From a virus (taxonomy: Duplodnaviria; Heunggongvirae; Uroviricota; Caudoviricetes): 18,960 nt of DNA. Shown here in pieces: positions 1 to 16,130 of the stretch. The notes under the pieces are model-generated. The model worked only from the letters and a program-made list of their open reading frames with translations, was not told where the DNA came from and did not search any database. Both the position numbers and the translations under genes were made by a program. Position 1 is the first letter of the stretch; each line of letters begins with the position of its first letter. The stretch lies in IMG/VR virus record IMGVR_UViG_2585427767_000004. One strand, written 5' to 3'.

Positions 1-884
1 ATGGGTATGCTGGAAAGAGAGATGAAAAACCTGGCGCGGCAGGCTGGCGGGGCGCACAAGATTGTCCATGACCGTATCGCCACGGCAGGACGGTTCTGTG
101 GACGCCTGATGGAACTGAACGTTCAGATACGCTATGTCCACCATTTAAAGACGAAGCATATTGAGGCGTATATTCAGATGCGGCTGGCGCAGGGGATTCA
201 GAAACAGACGCTGCATAATGAAACGGCGGCCATCCGTAAAATACTGACGCAGGCCGGGCGCGAAAAGCTGGCGCAGAGTGAGCGGATATCGAATAAATCG
301 CTGGGGCTGGCTGGCGTATCCCGCAACGGTACGCGGAAAGCCATTACGCCGGAATATTATCAACAGATGGCAGAGACTGCCCGGCTGAAAGACGCGGGAC
401 TGGAGGCAGCGCTGGAGCTGGCACGGCTGATGGGGTTACGTTCACAGGAAGCAGTACGCTGTTCCGGTTCACTAAAAACCTGGCGCGAAGCACTGGCGCA
501 CGGCGACACCCGGCTGACCGTGGTACTCGGCACCAAAGGCGGACGGCCCCGCGGCACCCTTATTCAGGATACTGGCGCAGTTAAACGGGCGCTTGAGACT
601 GCCATTGCGGTGACAGAACGGCGTAACGGCAGGCTGATTGATACGGCGAGCCTTAAACAGGCAATAAAATACTGGCGCAACCACACTTTGCGTATGGGCT
701 GACGGACAAATACTCCCCGCACTCACTGCGCTACGCCTGGGCGCAGGACGATATCCGCCGGTATCTGGCGCAAGGATTCAGCGAAAAAGAGGCGCTGGCA
801 ATGGTGGCGATGGGCCTGGGGCATGGCGACGGGCACGGTCGCTGGGTGAAGCAGGTGTACGCACACGAATGGAAGAAGGAATAA
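1..884 (+). pseudogene. Tyrosine recombinase (phage-type integrase), reading frame disrupted
   Basis: ORF 1..702 (233 aa) has an integrase-like N-terminal/central region including an Arg-containing box-I-like segment (RLTVVLGTKGGRPRG). TGA at 700-702 ends it, but the catalytic box II continues in another frame at 699..884 (LTDKYSPHSLRYAWAQDD...GLGHGDGHGRWVKQVYAHEWKKE, with His-x-x-Arg and a C-terminal Tyr). Either a real frameshift or a sequencing indel near 690-705. The ORF reaches the window start, so the true 5' end may lie upstream. Confidence 0.6.
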
Positions 885-2494: not shown

Positions 2495-3865
2495 ATGACT
2501 CTGAATGAATTTTCATCAACCACAGCATCTATTTTTGGTAATTTTGAAAAAATCATAAGAATGCTAAAAAGCATAAGTGACCCTAAATACATAACCGTTG
2601 CCAACAGAAGAAGCAAACTTTTGGGAAATATGTCCGAACATATTTCCATAATCAATAAATTCCATCCTTTCGCACATGCTGAATTCTTTACAAAAGAAGA
2701 AAAAGAAAATATCTTTTCACTACTAAAACTTACGGACAACTACATATCATCTATGATTTCTGATATTTTTTCAGATGATATTTATCGGAACATTATCACT
2801 ATCAATGATGATTTAATTAGGTATTCAAGAATATCTAAGTTTATCCAAGGCACGCATAATCAACCTAATACCTTAGCCATGTTCAAAAATCAAGCATCTA
2901 ATGAAATAGCCAAAGTGGTAGATCTGAAAAATGAAATTGAAATAAGTGCAACTCAAATCAGAGAGTTAGCAGTAAGAAATGCAAATTCTCATGATAAAAT
3001 CATTAAACTTGTTACGGACTTGAACGCCGAGACGAAAAAATTTGAAAGCGCCGGTTCTGAAATAGAATTCATACTAAAAAAGAGCAGAGATGCACTTATT
3101 GGTATAGAATCATCTAGTGAAAAGCTAAGAACTGTTGAAGAAACATTAAACAATATCGTTAATACAAACAAATCAATGCAAGACGAAATCATTAAAAAAT
3201 CTGCTGAGTCTGCCAGTGAGATTAAAAATCTCCTTGATAAAAAAAATGAAATTAAAGAATTAAAAACCATTATATCTGGTGAAATAAATAATGCGAAAGA
3301 ATTGAACTCTAAAGCTAATTCCGCATTGAATTTATCTGGAACATATAGGCTATCAAGACATTTTAGAGATGCATACAAAACCGCAAATAAAAACAAAAGG
3401 TTTTGGGCCTTTGTATCAATAGGAGCTGCAATCGTATGTATAGCATTCGTGGTTTATATGCTTGTCAAGATGAATGAAGTTAGTTCTTATCCTCCTACAG
3501 GCCAAGAGCCCAACTTATTATTATTATTCTTTGCTCGATTCTCAATGATTCCAGTATTAATAGGCTTCTTTGTATTTAGCGCCATACAATATGTTAAACA
3601 AAACAACATCAGTGAAGATTATGCGCATAAAAAATTGCTATCTGAAACTCTTGTATCTTTCAAGCAGGAAATCAATAAGAACGATACCGATAAATCATCA
3701 TTATTCATGGATAACATTCTTAAATCAGTATTAAGATCACCGCTTAGCTCCATAGACAAGAAGTCGCATCAAATGGAAATTGATAAAATAAACGAATTGA
3801 TTAATACGACATCTAAAATTAATAAAGAAATTATAGACCGCGTTTTGCCTGAGAAAGAGAAATAA
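2495..3865 (+). CDS. Hypothetical protein, 456 aa: coiled-coil-rich N-terminal domain, two predicted transmembrane helices, short C-terminal tail; candidate membrane effector (defence / superinfection exclusion); family not recognised
   Basis: Long uninterrupted ORF in a visibly AT-rich block, with ATG at 2495 and a weak GGA Shine-Dalgarno about 6 nt upstream. Residues about 309-330 (FWAFVSIGAAIVCIAFVVYMLV) and about 348-370 (LLLLFFARFSMIPVLIGFFVFSAI) are strongly hydrophobic. The N-terminal 300 aa are K/E/I/N-rich with heptad-like periodicity. No catalytic motif recognised. Confidence 0.8.
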   Translation: MTLNEFSSTTASIFGNFEKIIRMLKSISDPKYITVANRRSKLLGNMSEHISIINKFHPFAHAEFFTKEEKENIFSLLKLTDNYISSMISDIFSDDIYRNIITINDDLIRYSRISKFIQGTHNQPNTLAMFKNQASNEIAKVVDLKNEIEISATQIRELAVRNANSHDKIIKLVTDLNAETKKFESAGSEIEFILKKSRDALIGIESSSEKLRTVEETLNNIVNTNKSMQDEIIKKSAESASEIKNLLDKKNEIKELKTIISGEINNAKELNSKANSALNLSGTYRLSRHFRDAYKTANKNKRFWAFVSIGAAIVCIAFVVYMLVKMNEVSSYPPTGQEPNLLLLFFARFSMIPVLIGFFVFSAIQYVKQNNISEDYAHKKLLSETLVSFKQEINKNDTDKSSLFMDNILKSVLRSPLSSIDKKSHQMEIDKINELINTTSKINKEIIDRVLPEKEK

Positions 3866-4644: not shown

Positions 4645-5349
4645 TTTCAACTCCCGCCAGCCCACCAATCATGATTGGACGGTGTAAGGACAACACCAAA
4701 AAAACATGAAGTTAGCAGTCTCAGCGGAACACCGACCAGACGGTAAGCAGACAAAAAAGGATAAGCAAAGGAGCCGCAGTTCCCTAATGACACGAAAGCC
4801 CGCATTCTGATTAATTTGCTGTGCTTCACCTATCTCCATCAATAAAAACCATTCTTTTATAGCTTGTATATGCCAACTTGGCATGAATGCTTGTGATGAG
4901 TGAGGTGTGAAAGTTAGACGCAACATCCCCCTAGCGCCCACTCATTGCTATCGACGCCTTATTTTCAACATCAATGCAAATAGAAGTATGAAGATCGATG
5001 ATAGTAAACATTAGGTTAAAAAAACACGTAGTACTCTCCTTGGAGTATGAAGACGTTACTCACTTTAAGATTAGCATCCTCAAACCACTGTGAATTTGCT
5101 CCCATACGGAAAGAGGTGACTCAGACCTACAAAAATTTGTCAGGCCCGAAGGGTATCTTGCGCCAGCATAAAATACTGGATATAACCTAACTATTCATTT
5201 TAGCAATAGCCATTGCTTACGAGAGCTAGCTAATCTACGTAAATGCTAGGCATAACAGTGTCTTTAAAAGATATAGGTGGAATAAGTTCTGAAGTATGAG
5301 TGCTCTTCTTTTTCATCTATTCGTAATCAAAATGTGGATGTGATTGTTA

Positions 5350-8300
5350 ATGACAAATAAAAAAAATTTGAGTAATCCTTTTTCTACAGGCGGAGGCGGT
5401 GTTCATTTTGAAGCACATGTCCAAGCGTCTTTTGTTGCTCTAATGCTAACAGGCGGTAATGCACCTTGTCTTCCTTGTTGGCCCATAGTGGAGATAAATC
5501 TCCAGGGCAAGATTGATGGTTTTGATACCGACGACTTGATCGTCGTTGTTAAAGATTTCAACAGCAATGAAAAACGGAAGCTATTAGGACAAATAAAGCA
5601 TTCTATTTCATTTACGCAAGGTAATGCGATACTTGGGGAAGTTATACAGGCTGCTTGGAACGATTTCAACAATCCTGACTTGTTTACCAAGAACAAGGAT
5701 GTTATTGCACTGATCACCGGTCCGCTCAGTTCGACCGATACACACAATGTGCTCTGGTTATTGAATCAGGCTAGACACACAAAAACAGTCGATGAATTTT
5801 TGAGGAACGTTCAAAAAGCCAAGTTCAGCCCGCCTAAAAGTACTGAGAAACTGGAGGCCATCCAGTTTCATCTGAAGATGGCAAACAGTGGGAACGATTT
5901 AACAAACGATGAGCTTTATGACTTTTTGAACCATTTCCATTTACTAGGGTACGATCTGGGTAATGAATCAGGCGTCGTCCTTTCTTTGCTGCACTCCCAC
6001 ATAGCGCAATTCCATCAACAGTATCCTCAGTGGGTTTGGTCGCGGATAGTTGATATCGTACAAACTTGGAATAAAGATGCTGGCACTATCATTTCAAGTA
6101 AGCTACCTGAAGATCTTTTAGATGTTTTCAAACAAAGGGTTATTGCTGAAATACCTGAGAAGTTGAGGTTAGTACAACCGGTAGTCAAAACCGACTGGAC
6201 TCACCACCCAGATGCCTCTTATTTAGCCTTAGCAGTGTTGATTGGGCAATGGAATGATAAAAATGAGTGTGACCGAAATGTACTAACCCAATTGCTTGGT
6301 ATCAGCTATGACGAATGGCTAAGGAAGGCTCGAGAGATTTTACATAGCCCAGACAGTCCTTTGTCCCTAAAAAACGGCATTTGGAAAGTAACAAATCGAA
6401 TGGAGCTATGGAGTCTTCTTGGATCCCGCATTTTTGATCAGAATCTTGAATTGTTTAAGTCTTCCGCGATTTCCGTACTCAAAGAGCCAGACCCTGCTTT
6501 CGAATTACCTGCTGAAGAGCGTTACGCTGCTAGTATTCATGGTAAGGTGCTGAAGTTTTCATCCACGCTGCGACAAGGTATAGCAGAGGGTTTAGCCATA
6601 ATCGGGAGTCGGCCAGAGGTTTGCGTTAACTGCTCTCAGGGGAATGCTGAAACTTCCGTTAACGTCGCAATACATACAATTTTGACTGATGCAAACTGGG
6701 TTTTATGGGGTAGCCTAAACGGTTTGCTACCAACTTTGGCTGAAGCAGCTCCTGCAAAATTTCTTGATGCAGTTGAGAAGGCAATGCGTCAGACTCCTTG
6801 TGCATTTGATGAGCTTTTTTCTCAAGAAGTAAATGGTATCACTGGTGGTAATTATCTGACAGGACTGCTATGGGCTCTAGAAGAATTAGCCTGGGATGAG
6901 CAATACCTAGTACGCGTCTGTGTTGTACTGGCCGAACTTGCCAGCCACGATCCTGGGGGCAAGTGGGCTAATCGACCATCTAACTCGCTTACTACTATAT
7001 TATTACCGTGGTTTCCGCAAACGCTGGCATCTATAGAAAAACGAAAAGTTGCAGTCAACGTCATCTTGCAGGAATGGCCTGACATTGCCTGGAATTTACT
7101 CGTCCAGCTTCTACCCGGTCACCATCAAACCTCTTCTGGGTCACACAAGCCCTCTTGGCGCCGAATAATCCCAGATGATTGGGAAAGCAAAGTGACTAAT
7201 CAGGATTACTGGTTGCAGACATCTTTTTATGCTGAGCTTGCCGTCAAAAACGCCGGAGAAGATATCGAACGCCTTACCTTGTTGATTGATAATTTTGATG
7301 GCCTTCCATCTCCTGCTTTCGAACATCTTCTTAAGCACCTCTCTTCGGAAACAATTAATTGTCTTAATGAAGAGCAGCGAGTTGTAATTTGGGATCATCT
7401 TCATCGATTCGCAAATAAACATCGGCGATTCTCTAATGCTAATTGGGCTTTACCTGATGATCTGCTGACCAAAATCGAAAATGTTGCCGAGCAACTGGCA
7501 CCTACCAATCCATTCAACTTATATCAGCACCTTTTTTCAAATCGAGATTTTGATCTTTACTTAGAAAATGGCGATTGGGAAGAACGGAGAAATAAACTCG
7601 AATCAAGGCGCGAATCCGCAATATCAGAAATTCTTAAGCAAGATGGCGCAGAAGGCGTTATTCGATTTGCAGATCACGTTTCTGCGCCCCATCAAATAGG
7701 AAGTGTACTCGGCACTATCAACGATGATGTGTTCGAAAAACTTCTTTTGCCCCGTTTCCTCAATACAAAAGAAAATAAGTATAAGGCATTGGTAAGCGCT
7801 TTTATTTGGAAGCGTTTCTATCTCAAAGGCTGGGAGTGGTTCGACAATCTGGATAAAGCTGACTGGACTCCTGAACAGTTAGGCCAATTCTTTGCTTATC
7901 TGCCTTTTAACAAGGAGACCTGGACCCGAGTCTCTCATTATCCTCAAGCTTCCGAGAACGAATATTGGGCTCGCACCGATGCAAATCCTGACCTGGGTGA
8001 AGGTGACCTTACTAGTGCCATCGATAAGCTGATTGATCATGGCAGACCTCTTGCGGCAATCAATTGCCTGTGCAGGATGCATCAGACAAAGCAGCCAATC
8101 GATACTGAACAGTGTATCCGCGCTTTGCTTGCTGCCACTTCAACTAACGAATCTAGCTCCAACATGGATGGTTACAACATAACTACCCTTATCCAATTTC
8201 TTCAGACTGATCCCAAAGTGAATCCGGATAATCTTTTTCAGATCGAGTGGGCTTACCTTCCATTGCTCGATGGTCACCAAGATGCTGTGCCTAAGTTCCT

Positions 8301-8892
8301 TGAGAATAAAATGGCTAATGATCCAGAATTTTTCTGCGAAGTAATCCAACTCATTTATCGTTCTGACAAAGAAGACAATATGACAAGTGAACCAACAGAG
8401 GAATTGAAAGCAATCGCAAAAAATGCCTGGACTCTTTTGTACAACTGGAAGACACCGCCAGGAAGCCAATCAAATGGGACGTTCAACGGAGAACGCTTTA
8501 CTGAATGGCTTCAGAAAGTTAAGGAGGGTTCTACGGCATCAGGTCACCTGGACGTTGCACTCAGCAAAGTTGGTGAAGTCTTGATTTATACTCCCTCCGA
8601 ACCGAATGGCTTGTGGATAAACCGAGAGGTCGCAGCTGCTCTCAACGATCGAGATGCTGAGAGTATGCGCAGGGGCTACATGACAGGAGCCTACAACTCA
8701 CGAGGTGTTTATTGTGTTGACCCAACTGGAAAACCTGAGAGAGAGCTAGCTGACCAGTTCCGGGCAAAAGCAGAAGAAGTGGAAAACGCTGGTTTTCAGC
8801 GATTCGCCGTTACCTTAAGAGATTTAGCGGTTGGCTATGACCACGAAGCTGCACAGGTTATCAGCAATCTAAATATTGGAGAGGATGATTAA
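5350..8892 (+). CDS. Large hypothetical protein (about 1180 aa), no P-loop; family not recognised; candidate stand-alone defence or toxin protein
   Basis: Uninterrupted 3.5-kb ORF. The track starts at TTG 5344, but ATG 5350 (MTNKKNLSNPF...) is the more likely start. Moderately AT-rich compared with the tail genes. No Walker A (GxxxxGK[ST]) found on reading the translation. Gly-rich N-terminus (FSTGGGGVHFEAH), CxxC pairs (CLPC, CVNC), Trp-rich helical remainder. Putative terminator just downstream. Confidence 0.85.
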   Translation: MTNKKNLSNPFSTGGGGVHFEAHVQASFVALMLTGGNAPCLPCWPIVEINLQGKIDGFDTDDLIVVVKDFNSNEKRKLLGQIKHSISFTQGNAILGEVIQAAWNDFNNPDLFTKNKDVIALITGPLSSTDTHNVLWLLNQARHTKTVDEFLRNVQKAKFSPPKSTEKLEAIQFHLKMANSGNDLTNDELYDFLNHFHLLGYDLGNESGVVLSLLHSHIAQFHQQYPQWVWSRIVDIVQTWNKDAGTIISSKLPEDLLDVFKQRVIAEIPEKLRLVQPVVKTDWTHHPDASYLALAVLIGQWNDKNECDRNVLTQLLGISYDEWLRKAREILHSPDSPLSLKNGIWKVTNRMELWSLLGSRIFDQNLELFKSSAISVLKEPDPAFELPAEERYAASIHGKVLKFSSTLRQGIAEGLAIIGSRPEVCVNCSQGNAETSVNVAIHTILTDANWVLWGSLNGLLPTLAEAAPAKFLDAVEKAMRQTPCAFDELFSQEVNGITGGNYLTGLLWALEELAWDEQYLVRVCVVLAELASHDPGGKWANRPSNSLTTILLPWFPQTLASIEKRKVAVNVILQEWPDIAWNLLVQLLPGHHQTSSGSHKPSWRRIIPDDWESKVTNQDYWLQTSFYAELAVKNAGEDIERLTLLIDNFDGLPSPAFEHLLKHLSSETINCLNEEQRVVIWDHLHRFANKHRRFSNANWALPDDLLTKIENVAEQLAPTNPFNLYQHLFSNRDFDLYLENGDWEERRNKLESRRESAISEILKQDGAEGVIRFADHVSAPHQIGSVLGTINDDVFEKLLLPRFLNTKENKYKALVSAFIWKRFYLKGWEWFDNLDKADWTPEQLGQFFAYLPFNKETWTRVSHYPQASENEYWARTDANPDLGEGDLTSAIDKLIDHGRPLAAINCLCRMHQTKQPIDTEQCIRALLAATSTNESSSNMDGYNITTLIQFLQTDPKVNPDNLFQIEWAYLPLLDGHQDAVPKFLENKMANDPEFFCEVIQLIYRSDKEDNMTSEPTEELKAIAKNAWTLLYNWKTPPGSQSNGTFNGERFTEWLQKVKEGSTASGHLDVALSKVGEVLIYTPSEPNGLWINREVAAALNDRDAESMRRGYMTGAYNSRGVYCVDPTGKPERELADQFRAKAEEVENAGFQRFAVTLRDLAVGYDHEAAQVISNLNIGEDD

Positions 8893-9107: not shown

Positions 9108-9234
9108 GTGGAGGCGGTTCAAATCCTCTCAGGCAAAAATATGTAAAATCGGTAGCAGCTGGAAATCATTCAACACCCGCACTATCGGAAGTTCACCAGC
9201 CATCCGCAGTAACTTGTCATGGCAAGACACTGCG
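9108..9234. repeat. Direct repeat B (about 130 bp), partner of 4513..4644; ends in a stem-loop
   Basis: Same element as repeat A. Its hairpin is CCGCAGTAACTTG-loop-CAAGACACTGCGG: the stem is preserved with different inner base pairs, i.e. compensatory changes relative to copy A. Lies immediately 3' of the minus-strand gene 9246..9533. Confidence 0.7.
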
Positions 9235-9245
9235 GATTCTTATGC

Positions 9246-9533
9246 TTAACGGATCAACAGCCAGACCAGCAGACACGCCACCACCGGCACAGCAAAATCC
9301 ATCAGGCTTGCCACATCCCAAGCACGCGGATCAAAACCGCCCCACCACGGCATATTCATTCGCTTGCCATGCCCGAACATTTCAATCCAGCGATATTCTG
9401 CCTGGGTATGTTCACGAGCGATGAAGAACGTACAACCAGCTATCGCACCGTAAGCCCAGTTTCCGGTAAAAAGACCAACCAGTACCTGCGCAGCCACAGC
9501 ACAAAGTGCATGAAGTAAGGGGCTTATATCCAT
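9246..9533 (-). CDS. Small hydrophobic (membrane) protein, 95 aa, last gene of the tail-fibre operon; function unknown
   Basis: ORF with two to three hydrophobic segments (LLHALCAVAAQVLVGLF, AVPVVACLLVWLLI). Follows the tail-fibre genes on the same strand with a 13-nt gap. Confidence 0.65.
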   Translation of the reverse strand: MDISPLLHALCAVAAQVLVGLFTGNWAYGAIAGCTFFIAREHTQAEYRWIEMFGHGKRMNMPWWGGFDPRAWDVASLMDFAVPVVACLLVWLLIR

Positions 9534-9546
9534 TACTCCTCCTTTA

Positions 9547-10248
9547 TCAGATATCGTTTCGGGAAGTTGATAACAACTTTAATTCTGACTGAAGTTCATC
9601 AACTCTTTCTGTCAGTTTCTGGATATGGTGAATCAGTGGAACAACCAGACGTTCGTACATTACACCTTCGGCAACAAGGCCATTGCTGGAAATAGCTTCC
9701 GGTGCATCATCTTCGTTAGCTGGTCGCCAGTGTACAAACTGAGGGGCAATTTCTCCTACTTCCTCGGCAATCAATCCGTAGAATCCCCAGTCACGCCTGT
9801 CATTTTCGCATTGCGACCTGTACCACACAGGGCGCATCTTGAAAATGAGATCGGCGTGCTCTGAATCTATCGTCTCTACTGAATGTTTATAGCGAATAGA
9901 CGATGTTGACCGCAGTACAGACGAAATTGCGGGGTCAGGATTAAGATAAAGGTTTGCCGCCGCTGTAGTCGTGGCCAAATTCCATAAATAAAACGCTTCT
10001 CGACCTGTCAGCGGGTAAAAATCACCGCCATAACGACCGCTTTCCAGATCGTTCGCTTCCACTTTGTTTTTCAGCTTATTATCAACTTCAGTTTTTGTGT
10101 ATCTGGTGCTGATATCCTGCTTTGCACTGGTCATATCAGTCTGAAGCGTTGATACTTTTCCGTTAATTGAGGAAATATCTTCCTTAGCTTTACTGACATC
10201 TCCCTTTAGCGTGGTAATGTCTCCCGGAATTACTGTCGATGTAGCCAT
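9547..10248 (-). CDS. Tail fibre domain protein with C-terminal intramolecular chaperone (peptidase S74-like) domain
   Basis: N-terminal coiled-coil-like segment (GDITTLKGDVSKAKEDISSINGKVSTLQTDMTSAKQDIS) and C-terminal WGFYGLIAEEVGEIAPQFV...YERLVVPLIHHIQKLTERVDELQSEL, which matches the pattern I recall for endosialidase-chaperone-type C-terminal domains of phage fibres. Confidence 0.7.
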   Translation of the reverse strand: MATSTVIPGDITTLKGDVSKAKEDISSINGKVSTLQTDMTSAKQDISTRYTKTEVDNKLKNKVEANDLESGRYGGDFYPLTGREAFYLWNLATTTAAANLYLNPDPAISSVLRSTSSIRYKHSVETIDSEHADLIFKMRPVWYRSQCENDRRDWGFYGLIAEEVGEIAPQFVHWRPANEDDAPEAISSNGLVAEGVMYERLVVPLIHHIQKLTERVDELQSELKLLSTSRNDI

Positions 10249-10257
10249 TTTTCTTCC

Positions 10258-10539
10258 TCACATCCAGCCACGAAGTTGATGCTCAACAGCAACCACGTAT
10301 TCATCGAATATTGACAGTGTTTTCACATCATTAATGATGCGCACGTTTACAAAATATCCGTCTTCCTTAACACATACCGGTTCGCCATCTTCATTCAGTT
10401 CTCCGGTTTCTTTGTACACGTTACCTATCACGTCAATAAGAATATCATCCTGCATCGACTCGTCATCATAATAGCCAGTGCTATCCATAAAGGCCGAAAA
10501 GTCGGCCTTGTCTGCAAATTTAAGGGTTAAGTCTCTCAT
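10258..10539 (-). CDS. Hypothetical phage protein (93 aa), translationally coupled to stf
   Basis: Start codon overlaps the stf stop (ATGA overlap at 10536-10539). Acidic protein. Sits where lambda carries tfa but is shorter, and I do not recognise it as Tfa. Confidence 0.65.
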   Translation of the reverse strand: MRDLTLKFADKADFSAFMDSTGYYDDESMQDDILIDVIGNVYKETGELNEDGEPVCVKEDGYFVNVRIINDVKTLSIFDEYVVAVEHQLRGWM

Positions 10540-12596
10540 GATATTTTTTCTCCCATTTGTGTCTCGGTCAATTCTTTATGCCAGTTCCTAAAATTTCGAA
10601 TATGACCGAATAAGTGACGTTCACCCGTTGAAGTTTGCCCACCAAAACGAATGCTTGTATTCTTAGTTACATATCTCCACGCGGTTTTTTTAGGAACACT
10701 AGGAGGAATATCACCATTCAAAACAATATGAACACCATAATCTTTAGTAATTCTAAATCCAGCAACGAACTTTCTCTCTTTCGTTACCAGGTAACTATTA
10801 ACGCGTCCAGCATCTGCACCAACATCAATATAAGGGCTACCAGTATTTGCGGCAGTACCGCCACGGCAACCAAAAATAACGGCCTGGCCCGTTGGCACAC
10901 CGGAAAAATCCATTATACGTGGTGCTGCATTAGGAGGAAGTTCCCATTCCCAATTTCGATGAACTTCGGCTAAAATTGTAATAGGTGCGTCATACATATT
11001 ATTCTTAACAGGAATGTTAACCAAATCACTAGCGCGGGTAGCTGGTACGTCGTTAGTTATGATTAATGATGTTGCATGAGAACATTTCTCTACCTGAGCG
11101 GTTGCCGCCTTTATGTAATTTCCTGCGACCAATTCGCCGCCACTTTTAGCAAGCATTTCAGTACGAGCATAAACGCTCATATCTTCGGTAGCTTTAAATG
11201 TCGATTGGAAAAAATACCATCCACTAGCAGGATCATAATCAACGCGACTAGACAAAACATCACTAACTAGTTTAGCGGTATCAAGATCCAACATAGCATC
11301 AGCAATAAATGTGTTTCCGTTCCCGTCATCATTTAATTTTGAAATACGATGGCGAGCGCGACAACCAGCCCCCTTAACACGAATAGATATAGTAACATAT
11401 TCACCACCAACAACTGGAATCACACGGGATGTCCCAGTAGAAATCAACGTAACTGGCCCAGTGTCGGATGATTCTTTATAAGTGAATGTTGCTTGAGTAA
11501 AACCAAATTCATCAATAGAGTTTTCACTAACAGATAGACGGTTTGTATTTCTGTTCCAGTTCGCTGGTGAGTTACTATTAATAAAGTTATTAGTCGTAGT
11601 ACCTTCAATCAACAAACCATTTTTTTCGAAGCGTGGTTCGTCAATTGCAGCCTCCGTCAGTACACCAGATTTGTTAATGTAGGTTGCTTTCGATGCGCGT
11701 TTAAACTTTACAACCTTATCGCCAGGCATTGTTATTTCATCATCACCAATAACAATCTTTTTATATGATGGCGAAAAGCCCGTAATCATATCCAGTGAAT
11801 CGTTAAACGGTATCCACACATCGGGAAGCGGCTGCAAAACTTGTTTATACGGCTCCGCAGCCTGGCTTGCATACTCTCTGGCTGCGTCTTCACTTGCTTT
11901 AGCTGCTGTCTGGCTTGCTGCCGATGCTTTCGCCGAGTTCGCCGCCGCTGTTTCGCTCGCCTTTGCGTTGTTTTCACTGGTTTTTGCTGCTTTTTGGCTG
12001 TTGGCTGATGCAGTGGCAGAAATAGCCGCCTCGCTTGCAGATCCGGCTGCGGCACTCTCGCTTTCAGCTGCTGCATCCTGACTGTTTTTCGCCGCAGTTT
12101 CGCTGGCTTTAGCGTTCGTTTCGCTGGTCTTCGCTACCGTCTGGCTGGACTTTGCGTTAGTTTCGCTCGTCTTCGCTGCTTTCTGGCTGTTAGCAGCTGC
12201 AGTTTCGGATTTCTTTGCCGCCGCTGCGCTCTGAGAGGCGGCTTCAGCGTTGCGTGCTGCTTCTTCCACCATTGCCTCAAAACGACGCAATGCCTCCGGC
12301 ATGACATCATCTTCCGTCATGGCACCGAGAAAATCATTCAGCGTACCAGGTCTGGAACCTTCATAGACGGTAATGGTTCCGGCATGTGAAGGCGGAAAAC
12401 CTTCAACCAGCAGGGTGACGCTGTACTGGCCATGCTCAACATCCATGCTGTAACTCCCGGCTTCATCCGGATTTTCAGAGGCCACCGTGTTCACCAGTAC
12501 CGTGGTGCTGTTACGCTTTGCTTTGAGCTGAATAGTGCAGTTCTGTATTGGTTTTCCTGCACCGTCTTTCAGCACGCCTGAAATCTGTACTGCCAT
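10536..12596 (-). CDS. stf: Side tail fibre protein (lambda Stf-like) with Ala/Ser/Thr-rich repeat shaft and a distinct C-terminal domain
   Basis: N-terminus MAVQISGVLKDGAGKPIQNCTIQLKAKRNSTTVLVNTVASENPDEAGSYSMDVEHGQYSVTLLVEGFPPSHAGTITVYE closely resembles the lambda Stf N-terminus as I recall it. Start placed at ATG 12596 with GGAG 5 nt upstream; the track start at 12602 is an in-frame GTG. Confidence 0.9.
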   Translation of the reverse strand: MAVQISGVLKDGAGKPIQNCTIQLKAKRNSTTVLVNTVASENPDEAGSYSMDVEHGQYSVTLLVEGFPPSHAGTITVYEGSRPGTLNDFLGAMTEDDVMPEALRRFEAMVEEAARNAEAASQSAAAAKKSETAAANSQKAAKTSETNAKSSQTVAKTSETNAKASETAAKNSQDAAAESESAAAGSASEAAISATASANSQKAAKTSENNAKASETAAANSAKASAASQTAAKASEDAAREYASQAAEPYKQVLQPLPDVWIPFNDSLDMITGFSPSYKKIVIGDDEITMPGDKVVKFKRASKATYINKSGVLTEAAIDEPRFEKNGLLIEGTTTNNFINSNSPANWNRNTNRLSVSENSIDEFGFTQATFTYKESSDTGPVTLISTGTSRVIPVVGGEYVTISIRVKGAGCRARHRISKLNDDGNGNTFIADAMLDLDTAKLVSDVLSSRVDYDPASGWYFFQSTFKATEDMSVYARTEMLAKSGGELVAGNYIKAATAQVEKCSHATSLIITNDVPATRASDLVNIPVKNNMYDAPITILAEVHRNWEWELPPNAAPRIMDFSGVPTGQAVIFGCRGGTAANTGSPYIDVGADAGRVNSYLVTKERKFVAGFRITKDYGVHIVLNGDIPPSVPKKTAWRYVTKNTSIRFGGQTSTGERHLFGHIRNFRNWHKELTETQMGEKIS
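11855..12270 (-). repeat. Tandem short repeats inside stf encoding an (A)KTSETNAKAS-like Ala/Ser/Thr-rich shaft
   Basis: Protein residues about 112-250 consist of reiterated AAKTSETNAK / SQKAAKTSE / ASETAAKNS units; the DNA shows corresponding reiterated GCTTTAGC/GTTTCGCT/GTCTTCGC blocks. Confidence 0.55.
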
Positions 12597-12610
12597 ATTC
12601 ACTCCACAAA

Positions 12611-12635
12611 TAAAAAAGGCGCCATTTCTGGCGCC
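12611..12635 (-). terminator. Rho-independent terminator between J and stf
   Basis: On the minus strand: GGCGCC-AGAAAT-GGCGCC followed by TTTTTTA, beginning 21 nt after the J stop and ending just upstream of the stf ribosome-binding site. Confidence 0.65.
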
Positions 12636-12656
12636 CGTATTGGGGTTATAAATATT

Positions 12657-15600
12657 TCAACGGATACTGATACCGGAAGCAGCTTTTTTGGTCACAATCA
12701 CTGTACAGTCTGTGATGTTACCTGCGCCCTGATTGCCTTTCTGGAAAACCTTAAACTCCAGAGTGACGCTTCCCCTGCCACTCGGCATATCAATAACCGC
12801 ACTGTAGCTACCGGGAATGGCCCCTTTAGTTTCTCTGGATGCGATTAATACACCGTTTTTGCGAACTTCAAAACCATAACCCGTGTATCTTGTACCTCCC
12901 GGGTTATTACCACTTCCCGGATCGCTATACGCTATTCCGTTAAAGATAATGGGCGGAATAATGATTTGACGGTCAAAGTTATGATCATCGCTGATGGTGA
13001 CTGTAACCGTCCCGTTTGGTGTTTCCGTATTACCCCACGTACCAGCCTGTTTCGGGAATGATTTGGATACAGCTTTAACGAAGTCACCTCTGACCTGAGT
13101 CGCCTCCAGCATGCCCTTAATCGTACAGTTTTCATTTACCGTGACATTGTTGAACGTCCCGGCGTTCGCATTCACACTGCCACTGATATCCGCATTTTTA
13201 GCGGTCAGCTTTCCGTCTGATGTCAGGGAAAATGCCGGTGGATTTCCACCACTGGTAATGGTCGGGGCCGTCAGGCGCTTCAGGAACACGTCGTTCATAA
13301 ATATCTGATTGCCCTGCGCCACAAACATCGGCGTTTCATTCCCGTTTGCCGGGTCAATAAACGCGATACGGTTAGCGGCAACCAGAAACTGGCTCAGCTT
13401 GCCTTCTTCCGTGTCCTCCATGCTGAGGCCAATACCCGCGACATAATGTTTGCCGTCTTTGGTCTGCTCAATTTTGACGCCCCACATGGCATTCCACTTA
13501 TCGTTAGCGTCCTGCCACTCTTTCGAAAACTCCTCCAGTTTGCTGGCGTTATCCTCCGTCAGCTCGACTTTTTCCAGCAGCTCCTTGCCGAGATGGGATT
13601 CGGTTATCTGGCCTTTGAAAAAATCCAGGTAACCTTCCGCATCATCGCTCGCCTGACCGACAGCCTCCACGAATGCCGATTTGCCAACGGTGTTCACACT
13701 GCGGATATAAAAGTAATAATCATGGCCCGGTTTGATATTGATACTGGCGGCTATCCAGTACATCCCCGTGCCAAGATAGCGGGCTGTGGTTTCAACCTGC
13801 CTGATATCCGCAATCCGTTTTTCCGAGAACCAGAACTCAAACTGTACCGTCGGGTCATAAACCGCAAGATGCGGCGTGGCGGTTATCTGAAAATAGCCCG
13901 GTGTCAGCTCAATCCGAGACGGCGCTGCCGGTGCGGCAATCCGGAACGATACCGATGCCGGATCGCCCTGCTGTCCCCACGCATTTACCGCCCGGACTGT
14001 CAGCCTGTAGTTCCCCAGCGCCAGTTGCGTGAAGCGGTATGTGGTTTCCGCCGTCCGGGCCGTGCTGACCAGCCGCTCACTGCCGTCATCCGCTGCCACG
14101 GTCAGGCGAAGCATGAAACTCACGCCCTTCACCACCTTCGGCGTGTCCCAGCGGGCCAGCACCTGGTATTCCCCACTGTCTGCGGTGACTTCGGCAGTCA
14201 GGTGCTGCACCGCTGGCGGCGTGACACCATTCACCGTGCCGCTCTGGTCGCCGTCAAAGTGCGCCCCGTTATCCACGATGGCTTCTTTTTCCGGTACATG
14301 CTGCACGGCGGTGATGGCATACGTGCCGTCGTCGTTCTCACGGATACTCACGCAGCGGAACAGGCGCTGGCGCAGCGTCGGCAGCTTCAGCCCCCACACG
14401 CTGTATTCAGCAACGCCGTCAGGAACACGGCTCACTTTCACCTTCACGCCGTCGGTGACGGACTGAACCTCCACGCTGACCGGATTGCCACTTCCGTCAA
14501 CCAGGCTTATCAGCGTGGTACCGGAGGATGGCAGCGTGATTTCACGGTCGAGCGTCAGCGTCCGGGTCTGGCTGTTTACCGCCAGCACGCGCCCGCCGGT
14601 GCTGATACCGGCATAGTCATCATCACAGATTTCAATGACATCGCCCGGCACATGGCGAAGCCCTTCGGCACCCACGCTGAAGTCCACCGTCTGCGTTTCC
14701 AGCAGCTCCGTTTTAATCAGCCACAGCCCGGCGCGGTGTGCCTGCCCCCGGCTGGTACAGCCAAAGGCATCCATCTTCGTGACGTTACGACCGTAACGGG
14801 CAATGGCCTGCGAGTCCTCCACAAGCTCTGTTGCCGTCTCCCAGCCGTTATCCGGGTCAATCCAGTTCACCTCAACGGCATTATGGCGGTCTTTCAGGGC
14901 GCTGAAGCTGTAGCGGAACGGCGCGCCATCATCCGGCATCACCACATTACTGCGGTTATAGGTCCACACCTTATCCGACGGTCGGTCCTGCACGAACGTC
15001 AGCGTCTGCCCGTTCCATACCGGCATACAGCGCATCGCCGAGCAGAAATCACTGAGCACATCCCACGCCTTGCGCTGTGTGGTCAGGTATGCATTACAGG
15101 TGATGCGCGGCTCCGTGCCGCCAAAGCCGTCCGGTACTGACTGGTCGCAGTACTGGCCGATGACATACAGCGCCCATTTGTCCACATCCGCCGCACCAAG
15201 ACGTTTCCCCATGCCGTAGCGTGGATGGGTCAGCATATCCCACAGACACCAGGCCATGTTGTTGCTGTATGCCGGTTTAAACGTTCCGTCCCAGATACCG
15301 CTGTATTGCCGCGTCTGCGGGTTATAGTTCGACGGCACCTGCAGAATGCGCCCGCGAAGATGATAATTACGGCTCACCTGCTGGCTGCCGAACTGCTCCG
15401 AATCCACCTGTACGCCGACCAGTGCCGTGTTCGGGTAGCACTGTTTCACATCGATGATTTCGGTGTATGACGACCAGAGCGTTTTGTTCTGCAGCTGGTC
15501 TGTGGTGCTGTCCGGTGTCATCCTGCGCATCCGGATATTGAACGGGCGCGGCGGCAGGTTATCCACCACCACCGAGGCCAGATACTGCGAGGTGGTTTTG

Positions 15601-16070
15601 CCCTTAATGGTGATGTCTTTTTCCGTCACCCAGCCACCGTTACGCTGTATCTGAACCAGCAGGCGGACTTCCGACGGATTCCTGTCTCCCTTTGAGGTGG
15701 TTTCCACCAGTGCCTGTACACCGAAGGTAAAGCGCAGACGGTCGATGTTTGCCGACGTGATGGTCCGGGTGATCGGCGTGTCATATTTCACTTCCGTACC
15801 CAGCACCGTCTCGGAGCCGGAGGATTCAAATCCCTCCGGCGGTGACTGCTCCTGCTCACCGGCCCGGAACACCACCGTGACGCCGGAGATGTTGGTATTC
15901 CCCTCAGTGTCCAGCACCGGCGTACTGTTCAGCAGCACACTTTTTAATCCCTCCACCGGACCTTCAACCGGCCCTTCGCTGATGGCATCGATCACACTCA
16001 GCAACTGCGTGGACTTCAGGTTGTCCTTCGCTTCGCGCGGGGTATGCCCCTTACTGCTGCCTTTACCCAT
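12657..16070 (-). CDS. J: Host specificity protein J (central tail fibre / tip attachment protein)
   Basis: 1137-aa protein beginning [34 protein letters not shown], colinear with lambda J as I recall it over most of its length. The C-terminal roughly 130 aa (from about [20 protein letters not shown]) appear different. GGAG ribosome-binding site upstream. Confidence 0.95.
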
Positions 16071-16130
16071 TCCTCACGCTCCATAAACGACAAAACCGCC
16101 CGCAGGCGGTTTCACATAAAACATTTTGCA

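Follow-up and report, generated by a model that had tools for sequence, protein, structure and literature searches.

A predicted terminator between J and stf at an empty lom site, homologous to the annotated J-lom terminator of lambda-like Escherichia phages

In phage mEp460 (JQ182728, 18380-18406) the hairpin between J and lom is annotated in GenBank as a rho-independent terminator, the terminator between lom and stf is annotated too, and phage Ayreon carries annotated terminators under its match to the junction described here. lom itself is a textbook moron (PMC3594210; PMC7067206; for the moron concept, PMC3594210). The antiterminator Q is loaded at the late promoter and stays on the elongation complex, and late transcription is uninterrupted (PMC12360218; PMC7547250). 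The junction between J (tail tip/host specificity protein) and stf (side tail fibre) was analyzed here in an 18,960-nt (18.96-kb) stretch of viral DNA (Caudoviricetes; IMG/VR record IMGVR_UViG_2585427767_000004), which is called the window below and always means the whole stretch; the junction genes and the hairpin that separates them are read on the minus strand. As judged from its sequence, this hairpin is an already known terminator, the homologue of the annotated J-lom terminator of lom-carrying phages. We put at about 0.8 the probability that it is a conserved rho-independent terminator after J in lambda-like E. coli phages through which Q-modified polymerase reads.

The gap of 60 nt that follows the TGA stop of J (12659-12657) runs AAUAUUUAUAACCCCAAUAC GGGCGCCA GAAA UGGCGCCU UUUUUAUUU GU GGAG UGAAU and then AUG. 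An initial annotation had placed a GGCGCC-N6-GGCGCC hairpin 21 nt after J, and this was found exactly as described (GGCGCC, 12635-12630; AGAAAT; GGCGCC, 12623-12618; the 21 nt being 12656-12636) within a real stem that is longer. The full stem has 8 bp, namely an outer G.U, the paired GGCGCC arms and an inner A-U (6 G-C, 1 A-U and 1 G.U), and closes a GAAA tetraloop with a ΔG of -15.1 kcal/mol (12636-12617). The U-run, TTTTTTATTT in DNA letters (12617-12608; U6AU3), starts at the last stem position and, as had also been noted, runs straight into the ribosome-binding site (RBS) of stf (GU, then GGAG), from which it is separated by about 2-6 nt only. Read on the plus strand, the stem is not followed by a U-run. 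The tail genes L, K, I and J stand in lambda order on the minus strand and are followed by stf (Phage_tail_L, JAB/NlpC for K, Lambda_tail_I, the gpJ domains and phage_tail_N); in J, the Pfam families Phage-tail_3, FNIII-A_GpJ, Ig_J, Ig_J_second, Phage_Tail_Tip and Ig_GpJ_C were each matched at E <= 1e-25. The GC content falls exactly at the hairpin, from 56.4% in J to 45.6% in stf and 45.7% in the three small fibre genes, and at the hairpin the conserved tail module gives way to a mosaic fibre module.

The mEp460 hairpin with its U-run, GGGCGTCAGGAATGACGCC-TTTTTTATT, lies at an equal distance after a homologous J stop and has the same 8-bp stem and 4-nt loop (GGGCGTCAGGAATGACGCC-T6ATT in mEp460, GGGCGCCAGAAATGGCGCC-T6ATT in the window). 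One stem pair, C-G in the window, is U-A in mEp460, which is a compensatory change; one loop base differs, and the U-run is followed by the stf RBS in the window but by the lom RBS in mEp460. Lambda resembles the window in position, with a hairpin and a U-rich tail in the 61-nt gap after J, before the next RBS and in a Q-antiterminated late operon, whereas the lambda hairpin is unrelated in sequence (CGTCCG-GGAA-CGGGCG followed by TTTTATTAT) and weaker (6 bp, -9.0 kcal/mol), and lambda carries lom, so that its stf is preceded by lom's terminator. Luk and Szybalski are said to have described tandem late-operon terminators, t'J, downstream of lambda J (Mol Gen Genet, 1983), one of which we take to be the lambda J-lom hairpin. 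Junctions of the order J-terminator-stf, like that of the window, are present in the lom-less phages ev207 (Jouyvirus), Tritos, HannyBb, PhiR63_1 and PhiR11_1 and in many E. coli prophages; the lom-less phage junctions are 94-96% identical over 661 bp, and that of E. coli strain 118UI is 97.7% identical. ev207 is one base off in the stf leader (GAGTATG in ev207, GAATATG in the window) and differs in its fibre operon, which encodes a 791-aa Stf and two small genes where the window has a 686-aa Stf and three genes.

For the analysis of conservation, 31 distinct post-J variants were collected by anchors that excluded the hairpin and aligned (alignment A1). In this alignment 99.2% of cells pair in the 8-pair structure; when the partner was slid by 1-3 columns as a control, only 34-63% did. 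The stem occurs as three alleles (GGCGCC/GGCGCC, GGCGTC/GACGCC and GGCACC/GGTGCC), with every single-step G.U intermediate present, and two pairs are altered on both sides in 13 cells (G-C to A-U in 5 sequences, C-G to U-A in 8). The covariation score was 0.194 compared with 0.110 in shuffles, and 0.194 was attained by 0/500 shuffles. The T columns of the U-run are invariant or nearly so in the 31 variants (T46-T49 and T51 are invariant), while the spacer AAUAUUUAUAACCCCAAUAC, which leads from the J stop to the hairpin, varies more than the stem among homologues. Stem and U-run thus appear to be under selection. A long-range helix between the stretch after the J stop and the stf RBS/start codon, which was seen in a single-sequence fold and had suggested translational coupling or occlusion, was rejected as unconserved: it is lost in J ends with a 2-nt indel and was not recovered in a consensus fold of 10 lom-less variants.

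A generic scan of the window for terminator-like sites returned 20 compared with 19.7 expected from shuffles, and this result, uninformative overall and no higher than shuffling gives, is what speaks for a chance inverted repeat devoid of function. The same scan places the J-stf hairpin first, in keeping with the strong terminator that the initial annotation had proposed there. When a site was required to have at least 7 perfect pairs, 5 or more of them G-C, and 6 or more T among the 8 positions that follow (the strict definition), the hairpin was the sole site on both strands of the window; over 300 dinucleotide-preserving shuffles the mean was 0.0067 strict sites, and 0.7% of the shuffles contained one. 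For the 76-nt region the folding energy is -24.1 kcal/mol (z = -3.3), a value reached in 0/200 shuffles. Since the site is also intergenic and oriented as J, and its stem is held by compensatory changes, a chance repeat is effectively excluded. Rfam gave zero matches at the gathering threshold in the whole window. The hairpin has the features of an intrinsic (rho-independent) terminator, that is, a G+C-rich stem with a short loop, an adjoining U-run, a position downstream on the J strand and a stem kept in evolution.

No Ail/Lom family gene lies between J and stf, where only the 60 nt are available. Searches of the window by tblastn with the Lom proteins of lambda and mEp460 gave chance matches only (best E about 1). 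The lom cassette, used as a blastn query, had no real match anywhere in the window either, which bears out the reported lack of a lom-like gene; a degraded lom remnant was likewise not found. Lom-carrying loci run TTTTTTATT and then GCAGAAAAG on to lom, and lom-less loci run TTTTTTATT and then TGTGGAGTGA; the cassette of ~670 bp, consisting of an RBS, lom and lom's own terminator, has the U-run of the J terminator on one side and the stf RBS on the other. The stf leader of the window, GTGGAGTGAATATG, is homologous to the leader found after the terminator of lom itself (…GGCGGGCTTTTTT-GTGGGGTGAATATG). By these alignments the window carries the empty lom site, the lom-less form of a known polymorphic junction. 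A megablast search of the junction against phage genomes returned 213 records, among which ev207, Tritos, HannyBb, PhiR63_1 and PhiR11_1 aligned in one piece (no lom), and most records aligned as two blocks flanking ~670 bp of extra sequence annotated as Lom. Among complete E. coli genomes 4864/5426 matched the junction query, at 15,708 places in all, with one-piece and two-piece forms throughout the ranking. In IMG/VR, ~15% of 120 loci anchored on the J-stop flank were lom-less, as were 20/80 loci anchored on the Stf N-terminus. The lom-less state is therefore a common variant and no peculiarity of the window. Of the stem alleles, CGTC/GACG was seen only in loci that carry lom, and CGCC/GGCG and CACC/GGTG in loci of either kind; because two alleles are found in both states, gain, loss or recombination at the joint next to the J terminator has happened more than once.

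In every locus examined, including those of E. ruysiae, E. albertii and Shigella, stf directly follows a terminator U-run, which in relatives belongs to the J terminator, to that of lom, to a variant lom 3' terminator or to the end of an IS200-type element. The leader GTGG(A/G)GTG(A/G)(A/G)TATGGCAG is identical or near-identical after four different terminators in relatives, lambda included. The third and fourth of these terminator types, first considered as marks of other morons, proved instead to come from an IS200-type element inserted after lom and from a form of lom whose 3' end is different. In loci L165, L197 and L202 (about 916-1374) an IS200-type transposase (MGNEKSLAHTRWNCKYHIVFAPKYRR…) was seen between lom and stf, the hairpin of the element end taking the position directly upstream of the stf RBS. 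In lom-carrying relatives (e.g., mEp460, locus L002, 3353-3375) the distance from the U-run to the lom ATG is only 21-24 nt, with no promoter room; within the limits drawn here the cassette leaves no visible space for a promoter, though expression in lysogens is described for this moron. Contigs labelled as Clostridiales/Collinsella metagenome-assembled genomes (MAGs) were also found to carry the E. coli phage stf region (L210 has lom and stf, L216 has J and stf, and L211 has stf only), with Stf N-terminal identities of 86-100%, for which mis-binning is most likely.

stf and the three genes downstream of it form a tight operon (9246..10539 for the three; gaps of -4, 9 and 13 nt), and no terminator-like site was found among them in the scans. 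Because the U-run almost abuts the RBS and no sigma-70-like site lies nearby (none on the minus strand from 12597 to about 13500), stf appears to lack a promoter of its own after the terminator and would therefore be expressed only by read-through of the hairpin, most likely by Q-modified polymerase. In lysogens, pR' transcripts end at tR', and Q relieves this stop on induction (PMC7547250). ev207, a complete lambda-type genome with a near-identical junction, has an N-like gene and an 'anti-termination protein Q-like' gene (42166-42549, upstream of the holin) and a single late operon that extends from the holin through J, stf and two small genes. Polymerase without the Q modification, e.g., after stray transcription through J in a lysogen, would stop at the hairpin, and the tail fibre module would thereby be insulated from stray transcription. 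Once the phage is induced, polymerase that starts at the late promoter and carries Q would pass the hairpin, and stf and its three downstream genes would be co-expressed with the rest of the late operon; residual termination or protection of the 3' end of the J message may tune relative levels as a secondary effect. A comparable arrangement has been demonstrated by experiment in Tn916 (T1/canT; PMC11658703), where internal terminators halt polymerase that lacks modification and only the antitermination system of the element itself lets it pass. This is an analogy only: element and host are different, and the antiterminator is an RNA element in Tn916, whereas the Q protein is proposed here.

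Several points count against this reading. Q, qut and pR' lie outside the 18.96-kb window, and their presence is deduced from relatives; the stop and the read-through at the hairpin are both predicted from sequence, and the insulator role is a functional interpretation. The homologues are close, recombining Escherichia phages, the covariation derives from few substitution events, and the shuffle control overstates their independence; a cross-species scan of contigs recovered only Escherichia/Shigella loci and mis-binned MAG contigs, which gives the covariation no deep divergence. E. coli O157:H7 Sakai is a strain for which Term-seq has been carried out (PMC7547250).

Another claim of the initial annotation, that stf and the downstream genes could be regulated separately from the main tail operon, is not supported. 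The same terminator follows J in lom-carrying relatives, with an analogous one in lambda; lom-carrying phages also have stf directly behind lom's terminator, and ev207, whose junction is near-identical, combines one late operon with a Q-like antiterminator. The gap between I and J (16071-16130, 60 nt), which folds at -21 kcal/mol, contains a second terminator-like hairpin whose U-rich tail (UGUCGUUUAU) runs into the GGAG RBS of J, a layout as at J-stf, so that by the same logic J would be 'separately regulated' as well. Hairpins of this type are normal inside lambdoid late operons and are no marks of independently regulated units. Coordinates of the features are collected in Table 1.

Table 1. 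Coordinates of the junction, the fibre operon and the hairpin between I and J in the window
Feature	Position	Strand	Basis or remark
J (tail tip/host specificity protein), 1137 aa	12657..16070	-	Open reading frame (ORF) list and Pfam
20-nt spacer AAUAUUUAUAACCCCAAUAC, J stop to hairpin	12637..12656	-	Sequence
Stem-loop GGGCGCCA-GAAA-UGGCGCCU	12617..12636	-	5' arm 12636-12629, loop 12628-12625, 3' arm 12624-12617
U-run UUUUUUAUUU	12608..12617	-	Insertion junction of the lom cassette in relatives
stf leader: GU, GGAG RBS (12605-12602), 5-nt spacer, ATG (12596-12594)	12594..12607	-	Sequence
stf (side tail fibre), 686 aa	10536..12596	-	Pfam phage_tail_N, E 2e-66; phrog_1419 and phrog_3279, tail fibre
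93-aa gene	10258-10539	-	Overlaps the stf stop in ATGA
233-aa gene, Peptidase_S74 chaperone domain	9547-10248	-	ORF list and Pfam
95-aa gene	9246-9533	-	ORF list
Second terminator-like hairpin AAACCGCC-UGCG-GGCGGUUU, I-J gap	16094..16111	-	Relaxed scan

The initial annotation had left two routes for the expression of stf and the three downstream genes, read-through or a promoter of their own. Read-through agrees with the nearly absent gap and the tight operon. For a promoter in or near the J-stf gap, which would make these genes an independent transcription unit, no specific support was found beyond the general expectation for a gene behind a strong terminator. There is almost no room before the RBS, the sigma-70-like scan given above was empty, any promoter further upstream would fire into the terminator, and promoter-like sites in the whole window number fewer than expected by chance (17 compared with 25); this route can in effect be dismissed.

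Two further explanations are both compatible with a conserved terminator that Q-modified polymerase reads through. The hairpin could act as a partial attenuator at which even Q-modified polymerase stops in a fixed fraction of passages, leaving Stf and its partners lower or more variable than J. We consider this unlikely: it fits the strongest terminator-like site in the window, the position at a compositional and mosaic module boundary (J 56% GC, stf 46%) and the dispensability of lambda side tail fibres for plaque formation (10.1101/2023.05.14.540688), but Q complexes are highly processive across the whole late operon (PMC12360218), stf of lom-carrying phages lies behind two serial terminators and is still a functional fibre gene, and the sequence has no sign of regulated read-through, with no alternative structure and an unconserved outer helix. 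That the hairpin serves mainly as an mRNA 3'-end stabilizer or processing boundary, guarding the J message from 3' exonucleases, is improbable, as the U-run, needless for a stabilizer, is conserved with the stem; stable GNRA-capped hairpins do stand at other gene ends of the operon, after the major capsid gene of ev207 and in the I-J gap of the window, and a stabilizing role is compatible with termination and does not exclude it.

The left part of the window and the end of the fibre operon contain further features. The 233-aa ORF resembles a free-standing C-terminal piece of a tail fibre, matching the last ~240 residues of the 1385-position profile phrog_3299, and is absent from the otherwise similar operon of ev207. 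Right after the last gene of the fibre operon (stop at 9246), at about 9200-9236 on the minus strand, a long hairpin (AUCCGCAGUG…UUACUGCGGAU, ~-22 kcal/mol) has no U-run and is no canonical intrinsic terminator. An ORF of 1182 aa (5344-8892, plus strand) is convergent with the fibre operon; it matched only phrog_18693 (unknown function, E 1e-118) and no entry of Pfam, NCBIfam or PADLOC, and several E. coli genomes contain copies more than 99% identical that are labelled 'hypothetical protein'. At 2495-3865 (plus strand) a 456-aa ORF of 31% GC had no match in Pfam, NCBIfam or PHROG and weak PADLOC matches to DruC (E 1e-4) and ZorA (2e-3); it may be foreign cargo or a defence gene between the integrase-like ORF and the fibre operon. 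When the large ORFs on the left side of the window were searched with PADLOC and NCBIfam, no reliable match came up. The integrase-like ORF, at the window edge (1-702, plus strand), has a weak match (phrog_1, E 3e-5). It is no more than 9 kb away from the fibre genes and on the other strand, an arrangement shared with the lambda vegetative map.

A wider and tentative possibility, to which we give little weight, is that the U-run is a preferred recombination joint for cargo and fibre modules and that a controlled leak of the terminator gives side fibres at a set or variable fraction of J. It is suggested by lom being gained or lost at the U-run, by IS200 nearby and different stf modules attached, by two of the three stem alleles occurring with and without lom, by four terminators abutting one stf leader and by the 11-point drop in GC exactly at the hairpin. 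If this were true, the side fibres would be an optionally dosed host-range accessory. For annotation, the hairpin can be recorded as the conserved J terminator, and the empty site sets the bounds of the lom cassette to the base. The comparison also guards against taking internal terminators of lambdoid late operons as operon boundaries, which under Q antitermination they are not.

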